This document shows positions 8,895 through 61,330 of a stretch of DNA of 64,000 nucleotides, piece after piece. The notes under the pieces were generated by a model. It ran no database searches. It was not told where the DNA came from and saw only the letters and a list, made by a program, of their open reading frames with translations. Location of the stretch: assembly GCF_004010195.1 (NCBI RefSeq), contig NC_057719.1:749417-813416 (forward strand), given 5' to 3'. Numbering within the stretch: the first letter of the stretch is position 1; every line of letters starts with the position of its first letter. The position numbers and the translations under genes are program-made. Source of the DNA: Chiloscyllium plagiosum. Lineage: Eukaryota.

Positions 8895-9680
8895 AGTCAA
8901 CATTTATTGCTTGTCCCTAGTTACCCTTGAGAAAGTGGTGGGAATTGCATGCTGTGGGTTGACCCACAATGCCCTAAGGGAGGGAATTCCAGGATTTTGT
9001 CCCAGTGACACTGAAGGAATGGTGATATATTTCCAAGTCAGGATGGTGAGGGGCTCGGAGGGGAACTTGCAGGGGCTGGTGTTCCCATGTATCTCCTGCC
9101 CTTGTCCTTCTAGATGGAAGTGGCCGTGGGTTAGGAAGGTGCTGTCTGAGGATCTTTGGTGAGTTTCTGCAGTGTATCTTGTAGATGGTACACACTGCTG
9201 CTACTGAGTGTCGGTGGGGGAGGGAGTGGGTGTTTGTGGATGTGGTGCCAATCAAGTGGCTGCTTTGTCCTGGATGGTGTCAAGCTTCTTGAGTGTTGTT
9301 GGAGCTGCCCCCATCCAGGGCAAGTGGGGAGGATTCCATCACACTCCTGACTTGTGCCTTGTAGATGGTGGACAGGCTTTGGGGAGTCTGGAGGTGAGTT
9401 ACTTACTGCAGTATTCCTCTAGGTAAAAACCCTATTCCTGACAAAGGGCTTTTGCCCGAAACGTCGATTTTCCTGCTACTTGGATGCTGCCTGATCTGCT
9501 ATGCTTTTCCAGCACCACTCTAATCTAGACCCCGCAGTATTCCCAGCCTCTGACCTGTTCTTGTAGCCACTGTGTTTATGTGGTGAGTCCTGTTGAGTTT
9601 GTGGTCCATGGTAAACCCCAGGATGTTGATGGTAACACCATTGGATGTTAAGAGGTGATGGTTAGATTATCTTTTCTTGG
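8895..9680 (-). mobile_element. 3' part of the second CR1/L2-group LINE family
   Basis: HSLPHRHSVAAVCTIYKIHCRNSPKILRQHLP; same family at ~42380-43190, 52320-52875, 55660-55875. Confidence 0.8.
9418..9533 (+). mobile_element. Short Penelope-derived insert with a degenerate hammerhead motif (9438-9465)
   Basis: CTGACAA-AGGGC-TTTT-GCCC-GAAACGTC; TSD gcagtattcc at 9408-9417 and 9534-9543. Confidence 0.75.
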
Positions 9681-10147
9681 AGAAGGAGAAGGTCTGGCCC
9701 CGATTGAGAAGGATGGCAGCATGATATTAGTGAGAGGTCTCAGGCTGAATCAGTCCAGCTGGAGATTAGGAACAGCAGGAGTCAGGAATCTCTGGCCCAG
9801 ACAGTGTTTCTATCGCTGGAACAAAGCAAGAAAAACCCTATTGCTGAAATGAGGAGCAAAGTCACCGTGAACACTGTCTGCCCTGGTTCTCAGCTCTGGC
9901 TGCTTTTAAATCTCTGGGTTCACGCCCAGCTTTGGTTTCCAAAATGGCCATCTTCATTCATGTTGTCATTCCGGATACAGCCACCCTGCACGTTTATTCC
10001 CTACATTTGTCTACCGCCAGATTTGTTTGAATTTGAATCTGAATCCACACCTTCCTCTTCAGTGATGGATGGGTTCAGGGTTCTGAATGTCATGAATCGC
10101 ACTCTGGGCAATCAAAGCTGAGAAAGGGCTGGCTTTAACAATGCTGA

Positions 10148-10366
10148 GGCGAAAGTGGGGACTGCAGATGCTGGAGATTAGAGTCAAGATTAGAGTGGTG
10201 CTGGAAAAGCACAGCAGGTCAGGCAGCATCCGAGAAGCAGGAAAATCGACGTTTCGGGCAAAATCCCTACATTAGGAATGAAGGCAGGGAGCCTGAAGGG
10301 TGGAGAGATAAATGGGAGGGGGGTGGGGGGTGGGGAGAAAGTAGCATAGAGTACAATAGGTGGATG
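10148..10366 (-). mobile_element. Penelope terminal-repeat fragment with a decayed hammerhead (10248-10275)
   Basis: Same family as 9418-9533 and 60913-61113; minus strand reads CTAATGT-AGGGA-TTTT-GCCC-GAAACGTC. Confidence 0.7.
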
Positions 10367-10384
10367 GGACTAGTAATCCAGAGG

Positions 10385-10529
10385 TGAAAATGTGTTGCTG
10401 GAAAAACGCAGCAGGTCAGGCAGCATCCCAAGGAGCAGGAGAATCGACGTTTCGGGCATGAGCCCTTCTTCAGGAATGAGGAAAGTGTGTCCAGCAGGCT
10501 AAGATAAAAGGTAGGGAGGAGGGACTTGG
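10385..10529 (-). mobile_element. Penelope-derived insert inside a tRNA-SINE head
   Basis: Perfect 12-bp TSD gtaatccagagg at 10373-10384 and 10530-10541. Confidence 0.8.
10446..10473 (-). ncRNA. Minimal type I hammerhead ribozyme motif with an intact core
   Basis: Minus strand CUGAAGA-A-GGGC-UCAU-GCCC-GAAA-CGUC; all core nucleotides and a GUC triplet are present. Confidence 0.8.
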
Positions 10530-10844
10530 GTAATCCAGAGGCCCTGACTCATTCTCTGGGATGAGGGTTCAAATTCCAGCTGGTGGAATTTAATTTCAAA
10601 CATTAACATCCGAATGAAAAGGCTCCTCTTTGTTATGACCATGATCAACAATCATTCGTTGCTGTAAAACCCCATTGGGTTCACAAAGGCCAGCAGGTCA
10701 GTAGCCACTCCTGCTTATATGTCACCTCAGATCAATGTGGTTACTCTGACCTCTGCCCTCTGCCCTCTGAAATGGCCCAAGCCGGTCACTCAGATCGAGG
10801 GGAATTAGGGAATGGTGCCAAATGCTGGTCATGTTCCGTTTGGG

Positions 10845-11589: not shown

Positions 11590-14500
11590 ACCACCTACCT
11601 CACCGCCACTGGATCCACCTCACTGACACTGGATCCACCTCACTGACACTGGATCCACCTCACTGCCACTGAATATACCTCACAGCCACTGGATCCACCT
11701 CACTGACACTGGATCCACCTCACTGCCACTGAATATACCTCACGGCCACTGAATATACCTCACAGCCACTGGATCCACCTCACTGACACTGGATCCACCT
11801 CACTGCCACTGAATATACCTCACGGCCACTGGATCCACCTCACTGACATTGGATTCACATCACTGCCACTAGATCCACCTCACCGCCACTGGATCCACCT
11901 CACTTCCACTGGATTCACCTCACTGCCACTAGATCCACCTCATTTCCACTGGATCCACCTCACCGCCACTGGATCCACCTCACTGCCACTGGATCCACCT
12001 CACTTCCACTGGATTCACCTCACTGCCACTAGATCCACCTCACTGCCACTGGATCCACCTCACCGCCACTGGAGCCAACTCACTGCCACTGGATCCACCT
12101 CGCCATCACTGGATCCACCTCGCTGCCACTGGATCCACCTCACCGCCACTCAATCCACCTCAACCCAACTGGATCCACCTCAACCCCACTGGATCCACCT
12201 CAACCCCACTGGATCCACCTCACTGCCACTGGATCCACCTCACCGTCAGTGGATCCACCTCACTGCCACTGGATCCACCTCACCATCACTGGATCCACCT
12301 CACTGCTACTGGATCCACCTCACCGCCACTGGATCCACCTACCCGTCACTGGATCCATCTCACTGTTACTGGATCCACCTCATTGCCACTGGACCCACCG
12401 TGGGCCCTGAGCTGGTTCACCAGTGACACCAGGCCCTCCCCAACCACCAAACCCTGGCCTGCCCAGGCCCACCCACCTCTGAGGCACTACACCTCAGGCA
12501 CCACCTACCTAACCGCCACTGGATCCACCTCACTGACACTGGATCCACCTCACTGCCACTGGATCCACCTCACTGACACTGGATCCACCTCACTGCCACT
12601 GAATATACCTCACGGCCACTGGATCCACCTCACTACCACTGGATCCACCTCACTACCACTGGATACACCTCACTGCCACTGGATCCACCTCAACTCCACT
12701 CTATCCACCTCACCATCACTGGATCCACTTCACTGTCACTGAATCCACCTCACCGCCACTGGATCCACCTCACTTCCACTGGATCCACCTCACTGCCACT
12801 AGATCCACCTCACCGCCACTGGATCAACCTCACCGCCACTGGATCCACCTCACCGCCACTGGATCCACCTCACGGCCACTGGATCCACCTCACTGTCACT
12901 GAATCCACCTCACCGCCACTGGATCCACCTCACCTCCACTGGATTCACCTCACCGCCACTGGATCCACCTCACCGCTACTGGATCCACCTCACCGCCACT
13001 GGATCCATCTCACTGCCACTGGATCCACCTCACCGTCACTGGATCCACTGTCACTGGACCCACCTAACTGCCACTGGAGCTACCTCACAGCCACTTTATC
13101 TACCTCACCACCACTGGATCCACCTCACCGCCACTGGATCCACCTCACCGCCACTGGATCCACCTCAACACCACTGGACCCACCTCACTGCCACCAGATC
13201 CACCTCACCATCACTGGATCCACCTCACTGTCACTGAATCCACCTCACCGCCACTGGATCCACCTCACGTCCACTGTATCCACCTCACGGCCACTGTATC
13301 CACCTCACCACCACTGGATCCACCTCACTGCCACTGGATCCACCTCACCGTCACTGGATCCACTGTCACTGGACCCACCTCACTGCCACTGGATCCACCT
13401 CACCACCACTGGACCCACCTCACTGCCACCAGGTCCACCTCACAGCCACTGGAACCACCTCACTATCACATCTACTTCACGGCCACTGGATCCACCTCAC
13501 GGCCACTGGATCCACCTCACCATCACATCGACCTTATGGCCACTGGATCCACCTCACTGTCACTGGATCCACCTCACCGCCACTGGATCCACCTCACCGC
13601 CACTGGATCCACCTCTCTGTCACTGGATCGACCTCACTGCCACTGGACACACCCCTCTGCCACTGGATACACTCACTGCCACTGGATCCACCTCACTGTC
13701 CCTGGATCTACCTCACCGCCACTGGATCCACCTCACTGCCACTGAATCCACCTCAGTGTCACTGGATCCACCTCAGCGTCACTGGATCCACCTCACTTCC
13801 ACTGGATCCACCTCACTCTCACTGGACCCACCTCACTGCCATTGGGTCCACCTCACTGCCACTGGATCCAACTCACTACCACTGGGTCTACCTCACTGCC
13901 ACTGGATCTACCTCACGGCCACTGGATCTACCTCACTGCCACCGGATCCACCTCATCGCCACTGGATCCACCTCACGGCCACTGGATCCACCTCACCAAC
14001 ACTGGATCCACCTCACTGTCACTGAATCCACCTCACCGCCACTGGATCCACCTCACCGCTACTGGATCCACCTCACCGCCACTGGATCCACCTCACTGCC
14101 ACTGGATCCACCTCACCGTCACTGGATCCACTGTCACTGGACCCACCTCACTGCCATTGGGTCCACCTCACTGCCACTGGATCCAACTCACTACCACTGG
14201 GTCTACCTCACTGCCACTGGATCCACTGTCACTGGACCCACCTCACTTCCACTGGATCCACCTCACAGCCACTCGATCCACCTCACCACCACTGGATCCA
14301 CCTCACCACCACTGGATCCACCTCACGGCCACTGGATCCACCTCAACGCCACTGGATCCACGTCACTGTCACTGGATCCACCTCACTGTCACTGGATCCA
14401 CCTCACCGCCACTGGATCCACTTCACTTCCACTGGATCCACCTGACTGCCACAGGATCCATCTCACTGTCACTGCATCCACCTCACCGCTACTGGATCCA

Positions 14501-17500
14501 CCTCACTTCCACTGGATTCACCTCACTGCCACTGAATCCACCTCACCTCCACTGGATCCACCTCACTGCCACTGGATCCACCTCATCGTCACTGGATCCA
14601 CTGTCTCTGGACCCTCCTCACTGCCACTGGATCCACCTCACTACCACTGGACCTACCTCACTACCACTGGATCCACCTCACCACCACTGGACCCACCTCA
14701 CGGCCACTGGATCCACCTCACCGCCACTGGATCCACCTCACCATCACTGGATCCACCTCACCGCCACTGGATCCACCGCACTTCCACTGGATTCACCTCA
14801 CCGCCACTGGATCCACCTCACCGCCACTGGATCCACCTCACTGTCCCTGGATCGACCTCACCGCCACTGGATCCACCTCACCATCACTGGATACACGTCA
14901 CTGTCACTGGATACACCTCACTGTCACTGGATCAACCTCACTGCCACTGGATCCACCTCAGCATCACTGGATCGACCTCACTGTCACCGGATCCACCTCA
15001 CTTCCACTGGATCCACCTCACTCTCACTGGACCCACCTCACTGCCACTGGATCCAACTCACTACCACTGGGTCTACCTCACTGCCACTGGATCTACGTCA
15101 CTGCCACCGGATCCACCTCATCGCCACTGGATCCACCTCACGGCCACTGGACCCACTTCATCGCCACTGGATCCAATTCACATCCACTGGATCCACCTCA
15201 CTGTCACTGAATCCACTTCACCATCACATCTACCTTACGGCCACTGGATCCATCTCATGGCCACTGGATCCACCTCACCATCACATCTACCTCACTGCCA
15301 CCGGATCCACCTCACTGTCACTGGATCCACCTCACTGCTAATGGATCCACCTCACTGTCACTGGATCCACCTCACCACCACTGGATCCACCTCACTGCCA
15401 CTGGATCCACCTCACTGTCACTGGATCCACGTCACCGCCACTGGATCCACCTCACCGCCACTGGACCCACCTCACTGCCACTGGATCCACCTCACCACCA
15501 CTGGATCCACCTCACCGCCACTGGATCCACCTCACTGCCACCGGATCCACCTCACCGTCACTGGATCAACCTTACCGGCACTGGATCCACCTCACCGCCA
15601 CTGGATCCACCTCACTGTCACTAGGGACACCTCACCGCCACTGGATCCACCTCACTGTCACTAGGTACACCTCACTGCCACTGGATCCACCTCATCACCA
15701 CTGGACTAACCTCACTGCCACTGGACCAACCTCGCCATCACATCTGCCTCACGGCCACTGGATCCATCTCACGGCCTCTGGATCCACCTCACCAACACAT
15801 CTGCCTCACTGCCACCGGATCCACCTTACTGTCACTGGATATACCTCACCGCCACTGGATTCACCTCACCACCACTGGATCCACCTCACTGTCACTGGAT
15901 CACCCGCACCACCACTGGTTCCGCCTCACTGCCACTGGTTCCACCTCACTGGATCCACCTCACCGCCACTGGATTCACATCACCGCCACTGGATCCACCT
16001 CATCACAACTGGATCCACATCACGGCCACTGGATCCACCTCACAATCACATCTACCTCAAGGCCACTGGATCCACCTCACGGTCACTGGATCCACCTGAC
16101 CGTCACTGGATCCACCTCACTGCCACTGGATCAACCTCACTGCAACTGGACCCACCTCACTGCCACCGGGGCTACCTCTTCGCCACTGGATCCACCTCAC
16201 TGCCACCAGATTCACCTCATCGCCACTGGATCCACCTCACGGCCACTGGATCCACTCCACCATCACATCTACCTCACGGCCACTGGATCCATCTCACGGC
16301 CACTGGATCCACCTCACTGTCACTGGATCCACCTCACTGCTACTGCACCCCCCCAAACAACCACTGGATCCACCTCACTGTCCCTGGATCCACCTCACTG
16401 CCACTGGATCCACCTCACCATCACTGGATCCACCTCACTGTCACTGGATCCACATCACCTTTACTGGATCCACCTCAATGCCACTGGATCCACCTCACTG
16501 TCACAGGATCCACCTCAATGCCACTGGATCCACCTCACCGCCACTGGATCCACCTCACTGCCACTGGATCCCCCTCACAACCACTGGACCCACCTCACTG
16601 GCACCGTGTACACCTCACTTCCACTGGATCCAACTCATCGCCACTGTATCCACCTCACGGCCACTGGATCCACCTCACCACCACTGGATCCACCTCACAG
16701 CCACTGGGTCCACCTCACCATCGCATCCACCTCACTGTCACTGGATCCACCTCACTGCCACTGGATTCTCATCACTGTCACTGGATCCAACTCACCGCCA
16801 CTGGATCCACCTCACCACCACTGGATCCACCTCACCGCCACTGGATCAACCTCACTGCCACTGGACCCACCTCACTGCCACTGGATCCACCTCAACTGCC
16901 ACTGGATCCACCTCACCATCACTGGATTCACCTCACTGCTACCAGATCCACCTCACTGCCACCAGATCCACCTCACTGCCACTGGATCCACCTCACTGCC
17001 ACTGGATCCACCTCACTACCACTGGATCCACCTCACTTCCACTCAGCGCCACCGGATTCACCTTACCATCACTGGGTCCACCACACCATCACTGGATCTA
17101 CCTCACTGCCACTGGATCCACCTCTCCACCGCTGGAGCCACCTCTCCTCCACTGGAGCCACCTCACTGCCAGAGGATCCACCTCACTACCACTGGATCTA
17201 CCACACCTCCACTGGATCCACATCTCCACCACTGGTCCACCTCACTGCCGCTAGATCCACCTCACTGCCACTCGACCCACCTCACCAGCACTGGATCTAC
17301 CACACTGCCACTGGATCCACCTCTCTGCCACTGGACCCACCTCACTGCCACTGGATCCACCGCACCTCCACTGGGGATCCACCTCACTGCCACTGGATCC
17401 ACCTCACTACCACTGGATCCACCTCACTTCCACTGGATCCACCTCACCTCCACGGGATCCATCTCACTGCCACTGGATCCACCTCAACTCCACTGGATCC

Positions 17501-17952
17501 ACCACACCTCCACTGGATCCACCTCACTGCCACTGGATCCACCTAAACCCCACTGGATCCACCTCACTGCCACTGGATCCACCTCACCACCACTGGATTC
17601 TCCTCACTGCCACTGGATCCACCTCACACCACTGGATCCACAGCACCACCACTGGATCCCTCTGACTGTCACTGGACCCACCTCACTGCCACTGGATCCA
17701 CCTCACCGCCACTGGATCCACCTCACTGCTACTGGATCCACCTCACCACCACTGGATTCTCCTCACTTCCACTGGATCCACCTCACTGTCACAGGACCCA
17801 CCTCACTGCCACTGGATCCACCTCACCACCACTGGATCCACCTCACCACCACTGGATCCACCTCACCACCATTGGATCCACCTCACTGTCACTGGATCCC
17901 CTTCACTTCCACTGAATAAACGTCACCACCGCTGGATCCACCTCACTGCCAC
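11590..17952. repeat. Satellite, 20-bp unit CAC(T/C)GCCACTGGATCCACCT, roughly 300 copies
   Basis: Direct 20-bp periodicity over ~6.4 kb; BamHI site GGATCC in most units. Confidence 0.98.
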
Positions 17953-18025
17953 TGCTGCCAAGCCCCACTCACCCCACAACCAGGAGTTCCCGCTCTGGTC
18001 TTACTGTAACCAGGAGTCCCCAGTC

Positions 18026-18083: not shown

Positions 18084-19202
18084 ATCACATGGATACAGGA
18101 ATAGTGCAGGAGGGAGGGTTTCAGATATATGGATAATTGGGGCTCATTCTGGGGAAGGTGGGACCTGTACAAACAGGACGGTCTTCACTTGAACCAGAGG
18201 GGTACGAATATCCTGGGTGGGAAATTTGCTGGTGCTATTCGGGTGGGTTTAAACTAGCTCAGCAGGGGGATGGGAACCTGAGATGTAGTTGCAGTGTACA
18301 GGAGGATGAGAGTAGGGAGGACAGGGGCAGGATTTCAGGGTCACAGGAACGTGCTGGCAGACAGCGAAGTGGTTTGAAGTGTGTCTTCTTCAATGCCAGA
18401 AGTATTTGGAATAAGGTAGGTGAGCTTGCAGCATGGATAGGTACCTGGGACATCGATGTGGTGGCCATTTGGGAGACATGGATAGAGCAGGGTGAGGAAT
18501 GGATGTTGCACGTTCCAGGGTTTACATCTTTCATTAAGAACAGGCAAGGTGGTAAAAGAGAGGGAGGTGTGGCCTTGTTAGTCAAAGATAGTATAACAGT
18601 GGCAGAGAGAACTTTTGAAGAGGACTTGTCTACTGAGGTAGTGTGGGCTGAGGTTAGAAACAGGTGAGGAGAGGTCACAGTGCTCCGAGTTTTTTATAGG
18701 CCTCCGCAGAGTTCCAGGGAGGCAGAAGAGAGGATTGGCAAAACAATTGTGGGTAGGAATGAAAGGAACAGGGTGGTCATTATGGGGGCCTTTAACTTCC
18801 CCAACATTGACTGGAAATGCTATAACTCTAGTATGTCGGATGGATCAGTTTTTGTCCAATGTGTGCAGGAGGGTTTCCTGACACAGTATGTCGAAGGGTG
18901 GACAAGAGGGGAGGCCACACTGGATCTGGTGCTTGGTAATGAACCAGGCCAGGTGTTTGATTTAGTTGTAGGTGAACACTTTGGTGAGTGACCATAATTC
19001 AGTTAGGTTTAGTTTAGCGATGGAAAGGGATCGGTACATTCCACAGGTCAAGAGTTATCGATGGGGCAAGGGCAATTATAATGTGATTAGGCAAGAATTA
19101 GGATGCATAGAATGGGGTAGCAAAATGCAGGGGATGGGGACAATGGAAATGTGGAGCTAGTTTAAGGAACAGATATTGCGTGTCCTTGATAGGTATGTCC
19201 CT

Positions 19203-19687
19203 ATACCCAGCATGAGCAAAACCAATGTAGTGTACAAACTCCCATGCAAGGACTGCACAAAACACTACATAGGACAAACAGGAAGACAGCTAACGATCTG
19301 TATCCATGAACATCAACTAGCCACGAAACGACACAACCAGCTATCCTTAGTAGCCACACATGCAGATGACAAGCAAAATGAATCCGACTGGGACAACACT
19401 ACTATTATAGGACAAGCAAAACAGAGGACAGCCAGGGAATTCCTAGAGGCATGGCACTCATCCACAGTTTCTATCAACAAACACATTGACCTGAACCCAA
19501 TATACCGGCCACTACAGCGGACAGCTGAAACTGACAACCGGAAGCGGCAGGGACAGGCCACTATAAATGCCGGAGGAAACACCACAGAAGCGCTTCACAG
19601 GAGGCTCCCAAGCACTGAGGATGTCACCTAGACAGGGGACAAAACGTCTGCAACACAAATTCCCAGCTCGGCGAACAGAACCACAAC
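19203..19687 (+). mobile_element. Penelope-like element 3' fragment (GIY-YIG endonuclease plus hammerhead) nested in CR1
   Basis: VVYKLPCKDCTKHYIGQTGRQL...HEH...REFLEA; 12-bp TSD aggtatgtccct at 19191-19202 and 19688-19699. Confidence 0.92.
19612..19651 (+). ncRNA. Hammerhead ribozyme motif with one core substitution (GAAA to AAAA)
   Basis: GCA-CUGAGGA-U-GUCACCU-AGAC-AGGGGAC-AAAA-CGUC-UGC; stem I GCA/UGC, stem II 6 of 7 pairs. Confidence 0.72.
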
Positions 19688-21694: not shown

Positions 21695-22300
21695 GTAATC
21701 CTGGGACTCACCAACAATCTGTCCTGGTGCACTCACACTGGTACGACAGTCAAGAAAACACAACGTCTCTACTCCCTCAGGAGCCTAAGGAAATTTAGAA
21801 TGTCCAGAAGGACCCTCACCAATCTTTATCGGTGCACCGCTGAAAACATTCCATCTGGATGCATCACAGCCTGGAACGGCAACTGCTCTGCCCAGGACAG
21901 TAAGGAACTACAGAGAGTTGTGGACACAGCCCAGAGCATCACACAAACCAATCTTCCATCCACTGACTCCATCTACACCACTCAGTGCCACAAGAAGGCA
22001 GCCGACATCATCACAGACCCCTCCCACCCCGATTATAATCTATTCTGTTGGACAGAAGATACAAAACCTTTGAACACAGAGACCAACAGGTTCAGGAACA
22101 GCTTCTTCCCCGCTCTTATTACACTGATGGATGTCAAATGTAATGTTGGTCTCACTCTGTGTGCACCTTCCCTGCAGCTGTAACATTGCATTCCTCGCTC
22201 CGTCCTATTACCCTAATGCATTTTGGGCGATCTGTCTGAACTGCACGCAAAACAAAACTTTCCACTGTGGCTAGATGCATGTGACAAAAATAAATCACAT
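21695..22300 (+). mobile_element. Rex1/Babar-type LINE 3' fragment
   Basis: LTNLYRCTAENIPSGCITAWNGNC...LQRVV...DPSHP...FRNSFFP. Confidence 0.85.
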
Positions 22301-22970: not shown

Positions 22971-24239
22971 TCCTAGATGGTACATGTGCACACACAACTG
23001 AACAATGTAGGTGACTGCTGTTCTCTGGTTCCTGGGGCAGTTAACTGTCAATCATCGTATAACTGGTGTATTCCTCAAGGCAACCCCTTTAGCAACCTGA
23101 AGAAGCTCTGAAAAAGATTCCATGTTAACTCTGCTTTCTCTCCACAGATGCTGCCAGACGTACTGAGTTTCTGCAGTAATTTGTTTTTATTCCAGATTTC
23201 CAAAATCTCTGTCTTTGGCTTTTAGTTTCCTCTCCTGATCTGGGTCCAGTTGCCATCCTCATAACTCCCTGCTCCTGCGGTACGACGTCGATTTCCCTTC
23301 ACTTTCATAACCTTGCAAATTATCCTGATCGGTGCAAGATGAAAAGTCTTTCCTTTTGCAAAAATGTGTCATTTCTTTTTTTGCAACACTGAGGCAGGTC
23401 TCTGTCTTTCCAGCAATATCCTCCGTGGCAGCCAGCCTGCTTTTCAGATGAAGGGGAGTTATGTCCCTTGCCTCAGACTGCCCTTTTTCCTTCCTTATCT
23501 TCCCATGAGTTTGGATCAGATTTAGCTTTAACCGGGAGCTCCGTCTCTGTCAGATGGAAACTGCTCTGTTCTTTTGGCTGAGGTTTACTGGAGATGTTTC
23601 AAGAAACCAACGACAATATATAAGTTCTGGGCTTGCTATGTCTTGCAGCCTGATATGAAGCCGTGAGTTATCAGGGCTTGATGAAGGAGCGTTTTGTAGG
23701 GATATCTTTCAGACTCAGAGTCAGTCAGATAGAAAACAAGAAAGTATATCATCCCGACTTGCCTGGAATTTAATGACTCTGTCCAGATAGCAATCTGCAA
23801 AGAATCTAGATTCATATTTATAATTAAAGGCAGATTAGTGAGATGCTTTGAAGTCAGTTTTAAGACTTCAAATTAATTTGGGGATTGAGATTAGATCAGG
23901 AACAACAGGACCAATATGTGAATATTTTGGAGAGATGTTCACCATGTCGAGGTAACAAATCAATCGGTAAGGTTGCTGCTTAATGCAGTGACTCCCCTCA
24001 GACGGAGCTGGGAGTTTGAGGCTTGTTTCAGACAGGGAGCATCTCAGGACAATGGCACAGCTGCTGTCATCCTGATATCCTGCCTTTCGCAGTCACTGGC
24101 TCCTCAGCCCCTTGACAATGTCCAGGACATTCCCACACAGCACCTCGGATACAGACGGCCGTGCGGTCAATCCCAATCTCAGGATTTAGGAGAAATTAAA
24201 TATTGGTGCTGCACTGTCAGAGGTACTGCGTTTATATAC

Positions 24240-24580
24240 CACTCTCCCCATCACCCTGTATCAGTCCCCACACTAATCCCACTGCCCCGCTCTCTCCCCA
24301 TAGCCCTGTATCAGCCCCCACNNNNNNNNNNNNNNNNNNNNNNNNCACTAATCCCACTACCCCACTCACTCCCCATTGCCCTGTATCAATCCCCACACTA
24401 ATCCCACTGCCCTGTTCTCTCCCCATCGTCCTGTATCAATCCCCACAGTAATCCCACTGCCCCACTCTCTCCCCATAGCCCCCTGTATCAGTCCACAAAC
24501 TAATCTCACTGCCCTGTTCTCTCCCCATCGCCCTGTATCAATCCCCACAGTAATCCCATGGTCCCGCGCTCTCCCCATTC
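24240..24580. repeat. 50-bp C-rich minisatellite (cactaatcccactgcccc...gccctgtatcaatcccca)
   Basis: Units at 24271, 24346, 24396 and onward; contains a small gap. Confidence 0.9.
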
Positions 24581-25225
24581 TTCTGTAGCACTCTCTGTCT
24601 TGAATGTAAGAGGCACTCAGTAAGTGCTGGCTCTTCAGCACATGCCATGGGAGAATATGCTTCTTCCTCAAGTGGCCTCCATCTCTTGCCAAGCCTACCT
24701 TTGTCTCTTCTTGCTCCTGGGGCCATCATCGCCATGGAGACCTTGAACAGATCGCCCTCCGATCCCCTTCCTCCCAAGGAGAACACCAGCTTCTCCAGAA
24801 CTAACCTGGACCCTCTCAGAGAATATGATAGCCTTTGTGTAACATTGTTGGCTATAACTGGCCCCAAGACCCTGGGGGTGACCTGACCATCACAAAACCT
24901 CAGCAGGTCGGGCGTCATCGGAGAACAGGAAATCAGACCCTGGCCTGGAACTGACAGTAACTGGGAAAGGCTGGGATGTATGCCTGGAAGAACATAACCT
25001 CACGTCTGCTTGAGTAGCCTGTAACCTTCAGGACTTAATATTGTGAACAATAACTCACAGGTCTGGGAGGTCCCTTACATGGACTTGACCCAGTCCCTGG
25101 CATGATACTGGCTGCGTTCAGTACGGCCAATCATTTCCACTCACTAATGGTCCCTGCCATCAGCTCTTCTGTCTCCTTGGTCCACCATTATCCATCCCTT
25201 GGTCTGACAAACTCTCCCCCAATGG

Positions 25226-26022
25226 CAAAAGTGAAGTCTGCAGATGTTGGAAACTAGAGTCGAGGTTAGAGTGGTGCTGGAAAAGCACAGCAGGTCAGGC
25301 AGCATCCGAGGAGCAGAGCGCTTTAGGGAACATCTCCAGGACACCCGCACCAATCAACCCCACTGCCCCGTGGCCCAACATTTCAACTCCCCCTCCCACT
25401 CTGCCGAGGACATGGAGGTCCTGAGCCTCCTTCACCGCCGCTCCNNNNNNNNNNNNNNNNNNNNNNNNNNNNNNNNNNNNNNNNNNNNNNNNNNNNNNNN
25501 NNNNNNNNNNNNNNNNNNNNNNNNNNNNNNNNNNNNNNNNNNNNNNNNNNNNNNNNNNNNNNNNNNNNNNNNNNNNNNNNNNNNNNNNNNNNNNNNNNNN
25601 NNNNNNNNNNNNNNNNNNNNNNNNNNNNNNNNNNNNNNNNNNNNNNNNNNNNNNNNNNNNNNNNNNNNNNNNNNNNNNNNNNNNNNNNNNNNNNNNNNNN
25701 NNNNNNNNNNNNNNNNNNNNNNNNNNNNNNNNNNNNNNNNNNNNNNNNNNNNNNNNNNNNNNNNNNNNNNNNNNNNNNNNNNNNNNNNNNNNNNNNNNNN
25801 NNNNNNNNNNNNNNNNNNNNNNNNNNNNNNNNNNNNNNNNNNNNNNNNNNNNNNNNNNNNNNNNNNNNNNNNNNNNNNNNNNNNNNNNNNNNNNNNNNNN
25901 NNNNNNNNNNNNNNTCTTTGCTACCATCTCCCCAGCGCCCCCACCCCCCCATTTATCTCTCCCGGAGCCTCCCTGCCTCCATTACTGATGAAAGGCTTTT
26001 GGCCGAAACGTTGATTCTTTCT
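25226..26022 (+). mobile_element. Penelope-like element: inverted terminal piece, GIY-YIG C-terminal part, gap, then hammerhead
   Basis: ERFREHLQD...PVAQHFNSPSHS; 25226-25315 is the inverted terminal-repeat sequence; flanking cccaatgg at 25218-25225 and 26023-26030. Confidence 0.8.
25985..26012 (+). ncRNA. Minimal hammerhead ribozyme motif
   Basis: CUGAUGA-AA-GGC-UUUUG-GCC-GAAA-CGUU. Confidence 0.65.
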
Positions 26023-26111
26023 CCCAATGGGTCCATCTTCACCTCTCACGCCGCTACCCCCCGTCCCGACCCCTGTCCTCAACGTAAATCACCACCTTTT
26101 CCCAAATACAA

Positions 26112-26220
26112 TCAGTTCTGAGAAAGGGTGATTGGATCCTAAACATTAACTCTGCTTTCTCTCCACCGATGCTGCCAGACCTTCTGAGTTTTTCCAGCAA
26201 TTTTGGTCTCAGTTTCAGAA
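26112..26220 (+). mobile_element. Older Penelope-derived repeat (second family) with a decayed hammerhead
   Basis: ttaactctgctttctctccac-gatgctgccagac is shared with ~23120-23200 and 51330-51390. Confidence 0.55.
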
Positions 26221-32237: not shown

Positions 32238-32249
32238 TTTTCGAAAAGA

Positions 32250-35414: not shown

Positions 35415-35545
35415 ACCTCTGATGGAGAGTCATCTGGCCTCGAAATGTTAGCTTGCTTTCTCTCTCTCCATGGATACTGTCTGACCCGCTGTGATCTCCA
35501 GCATTTGTTGTTTTCAGTACAGATTCCAGCATCTGCAGTAACTTG
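35415..35545 (+). mobile_element. Old Penelope-derived repeat with a decayed hammerhead (35419-35449)
   Basis: CTGATGG-A-GAG...CTC-GAAATGTT followed by the family tail ccagcatctgcag. Confidence 0.5.
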
Positions 35546-43838: not shown

Positions 43839-44224
43839 AGATCAGCTGGGAGACAGGCCTGCAGCAAGAACACAGAGTTCCTTCAACACTGAGAGCAGTT
43901 TTACTGAAGTAACATTCACGGCAAACTGCTTCAATACATCACACCAAACCCACTGGTGTACAAGAGCTTGCTGCTTGCTCCCTTCCTCCCACCCCCATTT
44001 CTCAAAAACCAACTTGGAGACAACAAAACCAAACAAAATAAATCTACAACAAGAACTGAAAATGCTGGGAATACTCAACAGGTCCGGCAGATCCATGGAG
44101 GGAGAAAAATGGGATCACTGTTACAGGGCGTTTTTGGTCCTTTTAAAGGAAAGATGTCATTTGATCGGAGGCAGTTCAGAGAAGGTTCACGAGGGTGATC
44201 CCTGGGATGGGGAGGGAATGACTT

Positions 44225-49214: not shown

Positions 49215-51045
49215 AGAACAGTGAAGCACAGGAACAGGCCCTTCAGCCCATCATGTCTGTGCTGACCATGATGCCATTCTAACCTAATCCCACCTGCCTG
49301 CACACGGTCCATATCCCTCTCTTCTTTGCCTAAACGTTGCTGTTGTTTCTGCATCTACCACCTCCCCAGGCAGCGCATTCCTACCACCCTCTGTGTAAAA
49401 ATAAAATTCCCCTCACACATCTCCTTGAAACATCCCCCTCTCACCTTCAACCTATGCTCCCTCCTATTTGACACTTCCCACCCTGGGAACAGACCATCAA
49501 TGACCCACCCTACCCTCTCACCATTTTATACACTTCTCTCAGCCTCCAACAAAAACAATCCATGTTTGTCTAACCCCTCCTTATAGCTCATACACTCCAA
49601 TCCAGGCAGCATCCTGGGAAACCTCTTCTGCACCCTCACCAAAGCCTCTACGTCCTGCCTATAGAGTGGGGACCAGTACTGCACACGACACTCCAAAACA
49701 TGGCCTCACTAAAACTTTACACAGCTGTAACATGACTTGCCAACTTTTTTACTCAGTGCCCCAACTGATGAAGACAAGCGTTCCATACGCCTTATTTATC
49801 AGCTTACCCACTTGTGTTGCCACATACAGGGAGCTATGGACTTGCATCCCAAGATTCCTCTGTATATCAATACTCCTAAAGGTTCTGCCACTTACTGTAT
49901 ACTTTCCTCTTGCATTTAACCTCCAAAAATGCATCACCTCTCACTTGTCATTTTAAACTCCATCTGCTATTTCACTGCCCAACTTTCTAGCTGGTCTATA
50001 TCCTGCTGTATCCTTTGATAACCTTCCTCAATAGCCATAACTCCATTAATTTTCATGTCATCTGCAAACTGACTAATCAGACCACCTACCTTTTCATAGA
50101 ATCATAGAATCCCTACAGTATAGAAACAGGCCATTTGGCCCATCAAGATTTACAAGGATGTTGCCAGGGTTGGAGAGCGATCTAAGGGGCAACGTTTTCA
50201 CGCAGAGGGTGGTACATGTATGGAATGAGCTGCCAGAGGATGTGGTGGAGGCTGGTACAATTACAACATTTAAGAGGTATCTGGAAGGGTATATGAATAG
50301 GAAGGGTTTGGAGGGATATGGGCCGGGTGCTGGCAGGTGGGACTAGATTGGGTTGGGATATCTGGTCGGCATGGCCGGGTTAGACCGAAGGGTCTGTTTC
50401 TGTGCTGTACATCTCTATGACTCTAAGTGCTCACTGACCCCGCAAAGAGCATCCCACACAGACCTATCTCCCTACCCTAACCCTGTAAGCCTGCATTCCC
50501 TGTGGCCAGCCCACCCTAACCTGTACATCTTAATGATGGTGGGAGGAAACCCATGCAGATATGGGGAGAATGTGCAAACTCCACACATTCAGTCTGAGGC
50601 TGGAATCAAACCTCTGGGGCTGTGAGACAGCATTGCTAACCACTGAGCCACTGTGCCACCCCAATCATCCAAGTCATTTCTCTATATTACAAAGAATAGC
50701 AATCCCAGAACTGATCCTTGTGGAACACCACTGGTCACAGACCTCCAGTCAAAACAAACACTGCTCCACAAGGACCCTTTGTCTTCAGTGACCAAGCTGG
50801 GTTTGTACCCAAGGTACCAGCTCACTGTGGATCCCATGTGAGTTTACCTTCTGGTGCAGCTGACCAGGTCTGTGTAGACAACATCCACTGCACTACCATC
50901 ATCTATCACCTTTCTCGCCGCCTCAAAAACCTCAATCAGATTTGAGACGAGATGCCCTTCCCTGTGCACAGTCATGCTGACTATCCCTAATAAGTGAGTA
51001 AATCCCGTCCCTAATAATCTTTCCCAATAATGTCCTACCACAGGT
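49215..51045 (-). mobile_element. CR1 ORF2/3' fragment containing a nested HE1 (~50095-50660, minus) that itself contains a CR1 3' end (~50146-50425, plus)
   Basis: The RT sequence breaks at ~50095 and resumes at ~50665 (gatccttgtggaacacc = GVPQGS on the minus strand). Confidence 0.8.
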
Positions 51046-51047
51046 GC

Positions 51048-51392
51048 AATGCTCACTGGCATTAATTTCGCAATTTCACTTCCAATTTCCACCTTGCCCT
51101 CACTTTCACCTGGTCCTCCCTTCCTTGTCATCTCCGTTTCCATTTTTGGGGATGGACTGGCCACCATTATCCGTTACAAACCCCACCGGCTCCCACAGTT
51201 ACCCGGACGATACATCCTCATACCCTGCTTCCTGGAAAGACTCTATTCCATTCTCCCATTCCTCTGTCTCTGTCACATCCGTTCCGAAAAAAAGGATTTG
51301 TGAGGAAGGGTCACTGGACCCGAAATGTGAGCTCTGATTTCTCTCCACAGACGCTGCCAGACCTGCTGAGCTTTTCCAGCAACTTCTGAGTT
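51048..51392 (+). mobile_element. Penelope-like RT C-terminal remnant followed by a hammerhead-bearing repeat (51300-51329)
   Basis: Frameshifted PFLVISVSIFGDGLATIIRYKP / SHSY...SSYPASWKDSIPFS; GTGAGGA-A-GGGTC-ACTG-GACCC-GAAA. Confidence 0.7.
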
Positions 51393-51458
51393 ACAGCATT
51401 CACAGTTTCTTTTGGTTGTTTCCTGGTACCTTCTCTGTTCTGATGACTTCCATGGGAT

Positions 51459-51817
51459 CCCTCTACACTGTCCCCATCAAACACTCCCAGGACAGGGACA
51501 GCACGGGGTTAGATACAGAGTAAAGCTCCATCTACACTGTCCCCCATCAAACACTCCCAGGGACAGGGACATCATGGGATTAGATACAGAGTAAAGCTCT
51601 CTCTACCCTGTACCCATCGAACACTCCCAGGACAGGGACAGCACACGGTTAGATACAGAGTAAAACTCCCTCTGCACTGTCCCCATCAAATACTCCCAGG
51701 ACAGGGACAGCACAGGGTTAGATACAGAGTAAACCTCCCTCTACACTGTCCCCACCAAACACTCCCAGGAAAGGGACAGCACGGGGTTAGATACAGAGTA
51801 AAGCTCCCTCCACACTG
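51459..51817. repeat. 69-bp minisatellite, 5 copies plus a partial copy
   Basis: tctacactg-like anchors at 51462, 51531, 51602, 51671, 51740 and 51809. Confidence 0.95.
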
Positions 51818-52319
51818 TTGAGAGTCAGTAATGTGGATGTGGCGTATGAGATTCGATGGTTCCATATCCAGATTGAATCCTATCAGCCTCTCGTGAGAGT
51901 CAGGTCCCTGTCTCTGAGAGGGAGGAATGTGGTTGGTGCGCTGTTGGGATCAGATTGTTTCACTCATGGTCAGGGGTTATCAGAGGCAACTGATTCAAAC
52001 TTCATTTTCTTCAGCTTCAGAGAGTTTGTAACGATGAACGGAGCAGTTAGCCGAAGCTATCAGGAGTTAGTTATTGCTGTTTAACCCTTTAAGCATGTCA
52101 GGGTCTGTAATAAATCTCACTGGCTGCTGAGCTGAAAATTCTGTCTGCAAGGAGTTTAATGGGGCCATTAGCTCTTTCAGAAGATCCATTAGTGCTCTTT
52201 GCGAAAGCAATAACTTTGGATACATCTTAACCTTCAAATAATATATACTTTCAAATCTGTCTTAATTCTAGATGTTCAAGTATTTTCTTCTGCCAATAAC
52301 TCAAAAGTTTTTCTTTTCT

Positions 52320-54284: not shown

Positions 54285-55655
54285 AGGAAAGCATGCCATA
54301 TGCCTTCTTGACCACTCTATTGACCTGCGTTGCCATCTTCAGACTCTTTGTACATCAATTTTCCCCAGGGCTTTTCCATTTACTGTATAGTTCGCTCTTG
54401 AGTTTGATCTTCCAAAATACATCACCTCACATTTGCCTGGATTAAACTCCATCTGCCATTTCTCTGCCGACCTCTTCAATCTATCTATACTCTGCTGTAT
54501 TCTCTGACAGTCCCCTTCACTATCTGCTACTCCACCAATCTTAGTGGCATCTGCAAACTTGCTAATCAGGCCACCTATACCTTCCTCCAGATCATTTATA
54601 TCATATCACAAACAGCAGTGGTCCCAGCACGGATCCCTATGGAATACCACTGGTCACAGGTCTCCATTTTGAGAAACTCCCTTCCACTACTACTCTCTGT
54701 CTCCTGCTGTCCAGCCAGTTCTCTATCCATCTAGCTAGTACACCCTGGACCCCATGTGACTTTACTTTCCCCATCAGCCTACCATGTGGAATCTTATCAA
54801 ACGCCTTACTAAAGTCCATGTATTTGACATCTACAGCCCTTTCCTCATCAATCAACTTTGTCACTTCCTCAAAGAATTCTATTAAGTTGGTAAGACATAA
54901 CCTTCCCTGCACAATACCATGCTGCCTATCACTGATAAGCCCATTTTCTTCCAATGTAAATAGATCCTATCCCTTAGTATCTTCTCCAGCAGTTTCCCTA
55001 CCACTGACGTCTGGCTCACCGATCTATAATTACCCGGATTATCCACGTTACCCTTCTTAAACAAGGGGATAACATTACCAATTCTCCAGTCCTCTGGGAC
55101 CTCACCCATGTTCAAGGATGCTGCAAAGATATCTGTTAAAGCCCCAGCTATTTCCTCTCTCACTCCCCTCAGTAACCTGGGGTAGATCTCATCCGGGCTG
55201 AAAATGTGTTGCTGGAAAAGCGCAGCAGGTCAGGCAGCATCCAGGGAACAGGAGAATTGACGTTTTGGGCATAAGCCCTTCTTCAGGAGGCCCGAAACGT
55301 CGATTCTCCTGTTCCTTTGATGCTGCCTGACCTGCTGCGCTTTTCCAGCAACACATTTTCAGCTCTGATCTCCAGCATCTGCAGACCTCACTTTCTCCTC
55401 ATAGATCTCATCCGGACCTGGGGACTTGTCCACCTTAATGCCTTTTAGAATACACAGCACTTCCTCCCTCCTTATGCCGACTTGACCTAGAGTACTCAAA
55501 GATCTATCCCTAACCTCAACATCCATCATGTCCCTCTCCTCGGTGAACACCGATGCAAAGTACTCATTCAGAATCTCACCCATTTTCTCTGACTCCACAC
55601 AGAACTTTCCTCCTTTGGCCTTGTGTGGGCCAACCCTTTCTCTCGTTACCCTTTT
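54285..55655 (-). mobile_element. CR1 ORF2 RT fragment with a Penelope-derived insert
   Basis: [28 protein letters not shown] and KFAD motifs. Confidence 0.92.
55197..55401. mobile_element. Fold-back Penelope-derived insert with 74-bp inverted arms and hammerhead sequence
   Basis: 14-bp TSD tagatctcatccgg at 55183-55196 and 55402-55415; arms 55197-55270 and 55290-55363. Confidence 0.88.
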
Positions 55656-58178: not shown

Positions 58179-58371
58179 CCTTCAAAAACCATTTGTCTGT
58201 GAAAATCCAGGTAGATACACAATGGTGGTGACCCCACAGCTCTCTCAGGTTGAGGGTTTCCAAAATCCAAAGCACTCTTTTTCTCAATCCAAAATGGGCA
58301 CCTCCTTTACCCTGAGACTACATTTTAGGTTCTCCAAGCAGAAGAAGCCTTCTCTTTGCATCTTGCCCAGT

Positions 58372-58815
58372 CCGCTGTATCTAAGGAAAGACAGACTGGC
58401 ATTGGGGGCAGTCCAGAGCAGGGTCACTCGGCTGCTCCCAGGGATGGAGGGACTGGCTCATGGGGCGAGGTTGAGTAGGTTGGGCCTGTACTCACTGGAG
58501 TTTAGAAGGATGAGAGGTGACCAGATTGAAACGGGCAATGATTCTTAGGGCTGATGTGGGAGAATCGAAGGACCAGAAGGGTATCATCTCAGAATAAGGG
58601 GTCACACATTTCAGACCAAGGGGAGTGAATCTGTGGAACTCTCTACCAGATAGGGATGTCAAGGCTGGGTCATACAGTATATTCAAGGCTGAGAGAGACA
58701 GGTTTTAATCGGGAAGGGGGTTAAGGGGAAAAGGTAGGAGAGTGGAGTTGAGGATGATCAGATCAGCCACGATCCTATTGAATATTACCTGACTGCTCCG
58801 ATGTCACCTGGTCTT
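58372..58815 (+). mobile_element. Older CR1 3' fragment
   Basis: KDRLALGAVQSRVTRLLPGMEGL; same subfamily as ~4255-4475. Confidence 0.8.
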
Positions 58816-59003
58816 ACTGGCTTCAGTATTTGAATGGAGTGGGCGTTTGAAATGTGACAGGACTCCAAACGTGTGACCTAAGCACGTTTGATCTCCGTGT
58901 TTGACTGATCGCCTGCTGGAGATGAGGCTGATTGATCAGGTATCACTGGGGAAGCAAGTGCAGGCACTTACAGAACCTATAAACTGCTCAGCAAAGCATG
59001 TAC

Positions 59004-59842
59004 AGTCAGAGAGACGTACAGCACGGAAACAGACCCTTCGGCCCAACAAGTCCGTGCCGACCATAATCCCAAACTAAACGAGTCCCACCTGCCTGCTCCT
59101 GGCCCATATCCATCCAAACCTTTCCTATTCATGTATCCATCCAAATGTCTTTTAAACATTGTAATTGTACCCACATCCACCACTTCCTCAGCAAGTTCAT
59201 TCCAAACACGAACCACCCTCTGTGTAAACAATTTGCCCCTCATCTCTTTTTTAAATCTCCCTCCTCTCACCTTAAAAATGTGCCCCCTCATCTTGGAGTC
59301 CTCCATCGTGGGGAAAAGACAGCTACCATTAATTAGATTCCCTACAGTGTGGAAACAGGCCCTTCAGCCCAACCAGTCCACACCAACTCTCCAAAGAGTA
59401 ACCCACCCAGATGCATTTTCCTACCCTATATTTCCCCCTGACTAATGCACTTAACACTATGGGCAATTTAGCATGGCCAGATCACCTGATGTGCACATCT
59501 TTTGGATTGTGGGAGGAAACACATGCAAACACTGGGAGAACATACAAACTCCACACAGAGGCTGGAGTCAAACCCGGGTCCCTGGCGCTGTGAGGCGGCA
59601 GTGCTAACCACTGAGCCACCGTGCCAACCTATTAGCTCTGTCTATATCTCTCATTATTTTATAAACTTCTATCAGGTCACCTCTCAACCTCTACGCTCCA
59701 GTGAAAACAGTGCCAGCCTATCCAGCCTTTCCTTATAACTCAAACCCTTCATACCCGGCAACATCCTGGTAAATCTCTTCTGACGCCTCTCCAAGCTAAT
59801 AACATCCTTCCTGTTACTGGGCAACCAGAACTGGGCACAGTA
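59004..59842 (-). mobile_element. CR1 3' fragment split by a minus-strand HE1 SINE (~59330-59625)
   Basis: ORFs 58977-59306 and 59684-59947 flank the SINE. Confidence 0.85.
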
Positions 59843-60723
59843 TTTGTTGCTGAAACTCACTACCGTGATATTTGTACATCTTTTTAAAAAGAAAATTGTG
59901 AGGCAGTTTTGTGGTAAAGTAAGGTAAAGCAATTGGCCCATTAGCAATCCATATTTATACGGAGTTTTCCTGTTAATTCAGTTTGGATTCTGTCGACAGG
60001 GAGTGCATGTTAACAGGTACTGCTATGGGAGTGACCCAGTAATGACTTGGTATCATATCTACCTCTGTAAACAGCCAAAGTGAATGCTGAACTCTAGGCA
60101 TGATATCCCCAGGATCATTGTTTATCTTCACTCTTCTCACCTTTTTAATTAAGTTGAACACACTGTTTGTTTTCCAATTTAGTTGTTGTACCTGATGCCA
60201 ACTTGCAGAATTTCACATTTCACAGCCTTGCTAATTTGCCTGCATTTCGTCTTCCAGGGTGGATAACTGCAGAGCCAGGTTCTATCTAACACGCACTGAC
60301 CCATTCATACAACCCATCAGTAACCCTCTCACATTGCCTCCTTTCTTACTTTCCCTTCTGTGGATCATCGGGATGTGTGGGAATGTGTCACTCAGTCTCC
60401 TCATTCATTCATTAACGTCAGAATGTAAATAGCTGAGCCTTCAGTGCTGACCGTTGCTGCATTCCACTGGTCACAGCCTGCCAATTTGAAAATGAGTCGT
60501 TCCCTCCTCCTCAGTTTTCTGTCGACTGGCCAATCCTACATTCCTGATACATTATCACCCTCAATCCCACAAACCCTAACTTGTAATTATTCCCACTTGG
60601 CCAGCGTCCCCCTGTGCATCTCACTGCCTATTTCTGAATCCTTTCATCCCTTCAGACCTCACTGACGCTGACCCCTTATGTATCTCCACCTTTGATATCA
60701 ACTACTTGGGCAATATGATGTTG

Positions 60724-61330
60724 ATCAGAAAAGATTTACAAGGACGTTGCCAGGGTTGGAGGGTTTGAGCTACAGGGAGAGGCTGAATGGGTTGGGGTTG
60801 TTTTCCCTGGAGTGTCAGAGGCTGAGGTGAGACCTTGTAGAGGTTTATAAAGTCATGAGGGGCATGGATAGGGTAAATAGTAAAAGTCTAGAACTAGAGG
60901 GCATAGGTTTAAATCAACTAGGCAAAAGTGAGGACTGCAGATGCTGGGGATCAGAGTCTAGATTAGAGTGGTGCTGGAAAAGCACAGCAGGTCAGGCAGC
61001 ATCTGAGGGGCAGGAAAGGATTTCTGATGAAGGGCTTTTGCCCGAAACGTTGATTTTCCTGCTCCTTAATGCTGCCTGATCTGTCGTGCTTTTCCAGCAC
61101 CACTCTGATCTAAGCATAAGTTTAAGGTGAGAGGGGAAAGATTTAAAAAGGGAACATAGGGGCAACGTTTTCACGCAGAGGGTGGTACGTGTATGGAATG
61201 AGCTGCCAGAGGAAGTGGTGGAGGCTGGTGCAATTGCAACATTTAAGAGGCATTTAGATGGGTATATGAATAGGAAGGGTTTGGAGGGATATGGGCTGGG
61301 TGCTGGCAGGTGGGACTAGATTGGGTTAGT
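60724..61330 (+). mobile_element. CR1 3' fragment split by a Penelope-derived insert (60913-61113)
   Basis: TSD gcata(g/a)gtttaa at 60901-60912 and 61114-61125. Confidence 0.88.
61024..61051 (+). ncRNA. Minimal type I hammerhead ribozyme motif, intact core, GUU triplet
   Basis: CUGAUGA-A-GGGC-UUUU-GCCC-GAAA-CGUU. Confidence 0.78.

Follow-up and report, generated by a model that had tools for sequence, protein, structure and literature searches.

Hammerhead ribozyme motifs dispersed in a bamboo-shark genomic window are very probably, for the most part, decayed ends of Penelope-like elements

The 64,000-nucleotide stretch analysed here (the window; Chiloscyllium plagiosum, NC_057719.1, positions 749,417 to 813,416) had been described as carrying ten dispersed minimal hammerhead motifs, all of which we found at the coordinates and strands reported, with the one correction that the copy at 26118 ends at 26147 (Table 1). 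A profile search of the window recovered an eleventh, decayed direct copy at 23097, giving one direct copy per 5.6 kb of non-N sequence (n = 11), as well as the inverted tail arms and tail-only remnants listed in the table. The motifs had been sorted into three families, but we count four, because 35419 has a separate stem II and tail; judged by sequence, these are a Poseidon-type family (B), a Neptune-type family (A), a likely Neptune-type family (C), and family D.

Table 1. Hammerhead copies, arms, and remnants in the window (positions are those of the whole stretch; + and - numbers give distances from the cut site).
Position (strand)	Family	Hammerhead	Other features	Target-site duplication
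9418..9533 (+)	A1 (Neptune-type), stub	9438-9465; G8>A	Short tail; likeness to sister copies begins ~4-5 nt 5' of core	10 bp, 9408-9417 / 9534-9543
10147..10372 (-)	A1, copy	10248-10275; dead: G5>A, A9>U, stem mismatch	~90 nt upstream UTR; long tail ending ~+101	
10385..10529 (-)	A2, stub	10446-10473; intact	Short tail (+61); same strand as 10248 copy, 198 nt upstream	12 bp, 10373-10384 / 10530-10541
19203..19687 (+)	B (Poseidon-type)	19615-19648; G12>A	5'-truncated; GIY-YIG endonuclease end, its stop codon (19629-19631) inside hammerhead; ATG at 19621 is start of stem II, 28 nt 5' of cut site; 39-nt tail; within LINE fragment	12 bp, 19191-19202 / 19688-19699
23097..23200 (+)	C, remnant	Heavily decayed	Tail; absent from earlier list	
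24894..24930 (-)			Short tail-like remnant without hammerhead; E 0.0024	
25226..25316 (-)	A1, inverted tail arm (long end)		5' side of 25985 insertion; halts ~8 nt before cut site	
25313..26022 (+)	Neptune-type	25985-26012; core intact, stem II broken	GIY-YIG fragment 25313-25441; N gap 25445-25914; 3' UTR; copy end <=10 nt from cut site	8 bp, 25218-25225 / 26023-26030
26118..26215 (+)	C	26118-26147; decayed	4-bp helix I readable; tail	
35419..35540 (+)	D	35419-35449; A9>G, C15.2>U	Long tail	
44041..44131 (-)	C/D-like		Tail without recognisable hammerhead	
50980..51395 (+)	C	51300-51329; C3>G, C15.2>U, H17=G	Old frameshifted Neptune-type reverse-transcriptase remnant (~50980-51300) abutting hammerhead; tail	
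55197..55401 (-)	A2, fold-back	55259-55286; G12>A	Inverted long arm 55290-55401, then direct short arm	14 bp, 55183-55196 / 55402-55415
60913..61113 (+)	A1, fold-back	61024-61051; intact (GUU site)	Inverted long arm 60920-61017, then direct short arm	12 bp, one mismatch, ~60901-60912 / 61114-61125 (by eye)

As had been proposed, the motifs are type I hammerheads of the minimal kind, whose helix III is palindromic and has no loop, and they show the published consensus features. All ten copies compared have an extra nucleotide after A9, nine have the G10.1-C11.1 pair, and the 15.2-16.2 palindrome lacks loop 3 and reads ACGU in seven, AUGU in two, and ACAU in one. The full CTGANGA...GAAAC-GTH consensus, however, is not matched by most copies: there are core changes at 9438, 10248, 19615, 26118 (three changes), 35419, 51300, and 55259, the CUGANGA, GAAA, and UH boxes are unchanged in only 3/10, and core and stem II are both kept in just two (10446 and 61024). 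Helix I is poor: its third pair is unpaired in 8/10, and in family A a U.U mismatch separates just 2 bp from a single further pair. Reads from other family A copies restore G5 (421/452), A9 (531/571), and the stem II C (660/789), with loop II variable among them; most of these reads carry an intact core.

The claim that stem II keeps its pairing while its sequence changes holds between families but fails within them. Between families, changes on both sides occur at 3/5 stem II pairs and 2/4 helix I pairs (5/9 together). Over helices I and II, 78.6% of 84 cells are paired, and the covariation score is reached by 0/500 shuffles, with slid controls lower; the set comprises 10 related sequences, and the shuffle figure is therefore not a probability.

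That the motifs are chance matches within repeats might be argued from the Rfam search, in which none of three matches at E<=5 is to a hammerhead family, and from four of the five folded motif regions being no more stable than their shuffles. Against this, a structure-aware descriptor (core boxes plus a stem II of at least 4 bp, designed after the motifs had been noticed) gives five matches with 0-1 core mismatches and none at that level in 30 block-wise dinucleotide shuffles. At two mismatches the shuffle mean is 1.3, and three of the four real matches resemble chance. The motifs also sit at a constant site after the reading frames of Penelope-like elements (PLEs), and the core is common to four families with unlike stems. 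With the descriptor shuffles, read mapping, and covariation test all refuting it, we regard chance as a negligible explanation. Tail-motif searches outside the genome gave no matches in viral contigs; 81 tail-motif loci in metagenome contigs had no likeness to the window beyond ~34 nt around the seed and were taken as chance.

Remnants of PLE proteins precede three motifs: 19615, 51300, and, beyond a gap of 470 N, 25985. They support the earlier suggestion that several Penelope-like lineages are the carriers, being 83-91% identical to bamboo-shark Poseidon- and Neptune-type proteins. Specifically, 19161-19628 shares 83% identity with P0002 over 156 aa, 25313-25441 shares 91% with P0010 over 43 aa, and 50980-51307 has weak reverse transcriptase (RT) matches; a Pfam search of 24 window ORFs found no RT or GIY-YIG match, and the remnants were detected through relatives only. 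From these alignments, the PLE location appears direct for families B and A1 and weak for C, and for D follows from tail similarity alone. A CX2-5CXXC linker is present in P0010 and 117/120 relatives and missing from P0001-P0009, including P0002, which does have an RT. Family B is assigned on this protein comparison to the Penelope/Poseidon clade (RT plus C-terminal GIY-YIG without the linker). Family A likely belongs to the Neptune clade, and C likely does too, with the linker known from P0010 and its relatives, lying outside the piece present in the window, and common to Nematis. The family A tail may conceivably be the ORF start: its frame is open in 3/4 long arms, although the tail is near the N-terminus of none of the fetched proteins.

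The copies have the structure of individual insertions. Target-site duplications of 8-14 bp flank 6/11 direct copies, there are three fold-back junctions, and the 3' ends fall in two clusters past the cut site, at +53 to +65 and at +97/+101, with an AT-rich flank consensus at loose 3' ends in the DNA run. No inverted arms lie beside 9438, 23097, 26118, or 51300, and a candidate decayed arm beside 35419 (~35370-35413) has an alignment score of 36 vs a shuffled maximum of 50.5. The preliminary description had taken the short noncoding copies as separate derivatives; they appear instead to be fold-backs or independently 5'-truncated ends of PLEs, each insertion having duplicated its own target site, rather than tandem retrozymes.

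A related possibility is that they are nonautonomous retrozyme-like elements, spread as ribozyme-cut circular RNA and mobilised by PLE proteins. Most copies do lack an ORF and measure 115-230 nt, there are two pairs of neighbours on one strand with spacings of 198 and 133 nt, and retrozymes are reported from one cartilaginous fish in a 2026 preprint (10.64898/2026.07.22.740005). However, 0/18 tandem-repeat rows bear a hammerhead, the members of each close pair belong to different subfamilies, and a separate duplication flanks 10446; moreover, 5' ends vary and lie upstream of the core rather than at the cut site, which the copies span. In addition, 96% of family A RNA reads continue into unlike sequence on both strands, in a polyA single-cell library that would miss circles. 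We consider this explanation very unlikely.

Read mapping, which covers family A only and uses a DNA run that may be from the same sample as the window, locates where most copies stop. Depth drops to 0.31 (~70% loss) just 5' of the core in both family A copies (A1 and A2), with DNA contig depth ratios at the 5' edge of the core of 0.35 and 0.32, and is flat beyond the step (0.94 in A2, 0.80 in A1); summed contig depths were not taken as copy numbers. At the cut site, depth holds at 0.95 in A2, the one copy where this is testable; in A1 it does fall, from 1532 to 792, but clipping of A2 reads at loop II confounds this figure. With depth stepping down immediately before the core but not at the A2 cut site, the element RNA likely starts just upstream of the core, and cleavage is likely not what shapes the copies. 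This suggests that the template is uncut RNA, in agreement with the in vitro result that insertion does not need hammerhead cleavage. We note that the depth step may be partly explicable by subfamilies alike in the motif but unlike upstream, together with clipping at the damaged 10248 core.

The stop could alternatively reflect reverse transcriptase stalling or template switching at the folded hammerhead, with helix I serving as microhomology. The inner ends of three inverted arms are no more than ~12 nt from the cut site, the 61024 junction is on helix I, and stem II has a pair probability of 0.97-1.0. Stem II, though, is the sole stable hairpin and must be passed before the stop, helix I is weak (pair probability <=0.02 in 61024), and depth is flat past the step; we therefore think stalling unlikely, if the most plausible of the alternatives.

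Whether any copy works as a ribozyme in its present place is doubtful. The proposal that these loci are self-cleaving motifs is weakened by damage to 8/10, by neutral-looking decay, and by the fact that, in the single RNA run yielding reads, no ends pile up at the cut site, although a fragmented polyA single-cell library makes this a weak test. Substitutions number 4/71 in the core and 14/346 in the tail (p=0.52; few sites, low power), and decay looks neutral, without selection; CpG-driven decay (4/42 vs 19/466, p=0.11) is not established. Family A is present in polyA RNA (4,417/12,955,460 records), and with two fully intact copies it could be supposed that the host keeps some dispersed copies to cut surrounding transcripts. 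We give this little credence: core and tail decay alike, neither intact copy forms helix III alone, and the cross-helix probability for the 10446-10248 pair is ~0.001. For both intact copies a dimer can be drawn, though the best alternative structure is more stable than this two-copy fold by 8-9 kcal/mol.

The explanation that we consider very probable is that the motifs are mostly decayed PLE ends, each with its family's minimal hammerhead, likely made numerous by priming close downstream: reverse transcription likely starts only 55-100 nt downstream, so the shortest copies still include the motif. By analogy with the Anolis carolinensis Poseidon element PAc (Frangieh et al. 2024, PMC11167929), the PLE protein would bind its own RNA near the pLTR/ORF junction, nick both target strands, and prime at two internal sites, the longer start yielding an arm with the 'tail' and the shorter an arm without it, and head-to-head joining of two arms would give the fold-backs. 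The template RNA would itself begin a few bases ahead of the core, which would explain why about two-thirds of family A copies end at that point. Cleavage in the active element would occur only as a two-copy hammerhead through the ACGU palindrome, probably protein-aided, and the genomic copies would be passengers decaying without selection. A further idea, which we regard as a long shot, is that intact stubs are live half-ribozymes in host transcripts, pairing through ACGU either among themselves or with RNA of active Penelope elements for protein-aided trans cleavage. If true, conditional cut sites would be very numerous in a shark transcriptome and would act on the element, host RNA, or both.

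The pairing of these motifs with PLEs has already been described in other animals: Cervera and De la Peña (2014; PMC4209133) report minimal hammerheads in the pLTRs of metazoan PLEs. The motifs described there share with those in the window CUGANGA-H, G10.1-C11.1, a stem II of 4-7 bp, GAAA-CG-UH without loop 3, and a short helix I, as well as a pLTR position following the endonuclease, the presence of more than one family in a genome, mostly dispersed singles, and opposite-strand pairs. The stem II start of its Acropora Neptune entry is near-identical to that in the window, and several entries resemble family B, whereas the window's Neptune-type families differ from those hammerheads in the mismatch at the third helix I pair. 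No cartilaginous fish is among the entries consulted in Table S1 and Fig. S3 of that study, and relative to those lists our addition is this host group only. We found no paper on shark hammerheads in a search thin on subscription papers, and the supplements of Li et al. 2026 may treat shark PLE hammerheads.

PAc resembles the window copies in its AT-rich flanks, in an optional tail delimited by a pair of 3' ends, and in the absence of RNA reads ending at the cut site; as in family B, its ATG opens stem II, with an ATG-to-cut distance of 26 nt vs 28 nt in family B. It differs in that reverse transcription starts 111-118 nt into the ORF, whereas the distance from cut site to copy end is 39 nt in family B and 53-101 nt in family A, and in that PAc cleaves with protein aid (PMC11167929), whereas the window motifs are known from sequence only. 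Endonuclease-bearing PLEs (Craig et al. 2021, PMC8557442; Arkhipova et al. 2013, PMC3846280) likewise are described with 5' truncation, an inverted 5' copy, a tail of 30-40 bp that only one end carries, target-site duplications of 8-14 bp, and the CX2-5CXXC linker in Neptune and not Poseidon, as here. The window inserts differ from those elements in being reduced to their smallest form (100-200 bp), and for the apparent beginning of most family A copies within a few bases of the core we found no counterpart in the available text of these two papers. Non-LTR retrozymes (PMC7229834; 10.64898/2026.07.22.740005) are also small, noncoding, and PLE-linked with type I hammerheads, but they are tandem repeats giving circular RNA (with canonical hammerheads in Cervera and De la Peña 2020, PMC7229834), in contrast to the dispersed single or inverted stubs with minimal hammerheads in the window.

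The copy population documents both the start points of reverse transcription, as two 3' ends, and its stopping point immediately ahead of the core, and sharks are a good test ground for the role of PLE hammerheads. In the zebra-shark Neptune-type protein P0016, the reading frame continues, by eye, into a hammerhead-like peptide at its end.

All ten motifs lie at the positions given in the preliminary description. A descriptor combining the two core boxes with a stem II no shorter than 4 bp matches the window twice with no mismatch, three times with one and four times with two; 30 shuffled controls gave no matches at zero or one mismatch and a mean of 1.3 at two. Three two-mismatch matches (22870, 44821 and 48267) have no family tail, the PLE sequence 3' of the cut site, and are treated as chance matches, and four listed copies not caught by the descriptor (10248, 25985, 26118 and 51300) were picked up through their tails. 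Using the 14 non-B rows of one motif-tail alignment as a profile, a search found 15 places at E<0.01: ten direct motifs (including 23097, absent from the preliminary description), three tail arms in inverted orientation and two remnants consisting of tail alone. With the 19615 copy, direct copies total 11, or one per 5.6 kb. An Rfam search did not recognize the hammerheads of the window.

Hammerhead copies (by motif start), tandem arrays and LINE fragments in the window
Feature	Position	Family or unit	Target-site duplication
Hammerhead	9438	A	10 bp
Hammerhead	10248	A	
Hammerhead	10446	A	12 bp
Hammerhead	19615	B	12 bp
Hammerhead	23097	C	
Hammerhead	25985	A	8 bp
Hammerhead	26118	C	
Hammerhead	35419	D	
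Hammerhead	51300	C	
Hammerhead	55259	A	14 bp
Hammerhead	61024	A	12 bp, one mismatch (read by eye)
Tandem array	6672-7366	23-bp unit	
Tandem array	24346-24578	50-bp unit	
Tandem array	27960-28752	23-bp unit	
Tandem array	43778-43837	19-bp unit	
Tandem array	51458-51818	69-bp unit	
LINE ORF2 fragment	1649-2131		
LINE ORF2 fragments	18668-19190 and 19700-20340		
LINE ORF2 fragment	21617-22180		
LINE ORF2 fragment	62582-63277		

Alignments resolve four families, with the six A copies forming subfamilies A1 and A2. When the ten motifs are aligned, 78.6% of 84 cells are paired and both sides have changed in five of nine pairs; the covariation score exceeds that of every shuffled and slid control. 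Eight of the ten motifs lack pairing at the third position of helix I. The earlier proposal of three families with a covarying stem II holds in that pairing is kept despite sequence change, but the families number four and all double changes lie between them.

PLE protein pieces lie at three of the motifs, as had been proposed for Penelope GIY-YIG or RT remnants, and a window scan with all retrieved proteins found them at these three places only, plus one 15-residue match (20981-21025) to the N terminus of P0002, a database PLE-related protein, within a LINE. For the ORF ending inside the 19615 motif, nine of 30 candidate proteins match at 72-95%; they bear the labels Chiloscyllium, Hemiscyllium and Rhincodon, which makes a carpet shark the likely host. 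P0002 has an RT domain and no CX2-5CXXC linker, an absence that marks the Penelope/Poseidon type in PMC8557442. P0010, a protein with RT, GIY-YIG and linker, shares 91% identity with the 25313-25441 piece; 117 of the 120 listed relatives of P0010 have these three features too, and by this resemblance the carrier of the piece appears to be of Neptune type. The 51300 motif is preceded by an RT remnant that is older, frameshifted and apparently also of Neptune type; at 50980-51329 it is fused directly to the hammerhead, with the remaining ORF gone and no duplication found, through either internal deletion or a template jump. PLE-derived pieces inside database proteins named as shark or ray host genes (P0001, P0008, P0014 and P0022) are likely annotation read-through or exonised repeats.

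The motifs belong to an already known kind, the PLE minimal hammerhead; they have all of its sequence characters and would be predicted to work like it. Non-LTR retrozymes, as described in portions of PMC7229834 and 10.64898/2026.07.22.740005, differ by a tandem test that the window copies fail. The latter already records retrozymes from a single cartilaginous fish and finds both Neptune and Poseidon elements in five vertebrate classes; PMC8455134 places Penelope among whale-shark repeats. The 2014 minimal-hammerhead lists of PMC4209133 have no shark entries in the portions at hand, and a literature search for shark PLE hammerheads found no paper.

Target-site duplications flank six direct copies, and none convincing was found at the remaining five. 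Three inserts are fold-backs, with the long end on the inverted 5' arm and a shorter end on the direct arm, in agreement with the inverted copy and one-sided tail (PMC8557442 and PMC3846280) and the two priming sites (PMC11167929) in the available parts of those sources. Three of the six family A copies start 2-5 nt 5' of the core. In the 25985 insertion the direct arm stops at most 10 nt from the cut site (26012-26022) and the inverted arm starts ~8 nt past it; this single case is the sole copy whose end could reflect cut RNA. About 16 nt of filler of unexplained origin (9418-9433) separates the duplication from the 9438 stub start. The family A tail frame is open in three of four long arms (10147-10232, 55320-55401 and 25226-25307), and A1 and A2 tails differ by an in-frame 3-nt step; this frame was found at the beginning of none of the retrieved proteins.

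To sample copies elsewhere in the genome, four sequencing runs were aligned to 10090-10600 at 80% likeness. Matches comprised 152,387 of 22.7 million contigs in a DNA run, 11,864 of 1.8 million contigs in a putative RNA run, and 4,417 of 13.0 million reads from RNA, with 0 reads placed from a further RNA run on that sample. The family majority carries the core, since most reads over the damaged 10248 copy have G5 (421/452), A9 (531/571) and the stem II C (660/789), and the core-less consensus that would have counted against the preliminary description is not seen. Among the 40 rows listed (with 114 more outside the listing), other changes within the 10248 and 10446 motifs are in loop II. Loose read ends cluster 97-101 and 53-65 nt 3' of the cut site. 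At the 5' edge of the core, depth in each of the two copies drops to 0.31 and then changes little. Over the cut site, A2 keeps 0.95 of its depth; A1 depth halves over its cut site plus loop, a stretch in which A2 reads get clipped. Subfamily differences upstream and clipping could contribute to the step. RNA reads represent both strands, 96% of them extend into dissimilar sequence, and no pile-up of read ends is listed on 10090-10600, the library type making this a weak test of cleavage.

In folding, stem II forms reliably and helix III cannot form within a single copy. Two-copy forms with one active site reach -14.7 kcal/mol for 10446 and -13.7 kcal/mol for 61024, while their best alternative folds reach -24.1 and -22.1 kcal/mol, respectively. 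For the natural 10446-10248 pair, the probability of cross helices is ~0.001. This fits the low minimal-hammerhead activity and the protein requirement described in parts of PMC4209133 and PMC11167929, respectively. Anatomy, families, carrier and end clusters are established here; as to mechanism, two internal priming sites 3' of the motif would give rise to the tail and fold-backs, most short copies would stop at the RNA start, the template would be uncut RNA, and the motif would cleave in an active element only as a protein-assisted pair.

Damage affects eight of the ten listed copies (core boxes changed in seven, stem II broken in 25985), leaving only 10446 and 61024 whole. Nine family A arms, compared with the family majority after exclusion of seven subfamily-diagnostic columns, have substitutions at 4/71 core, 3/52 stem II and 14/346 tail positions (core versus tail, p=0.52, a low-powered test), a pattern compatible with neutral decay.

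About half of the non-N sequence is repeated within the window. A 20-bp satellite (11597-17954; ~320 copies, 80% matches) accounts for its longest stop-free frames. The 19615, 55259 and 61024 inserts lie within LINE ORF2 fragments, which by resemblance we take to be CR1/L2-like.
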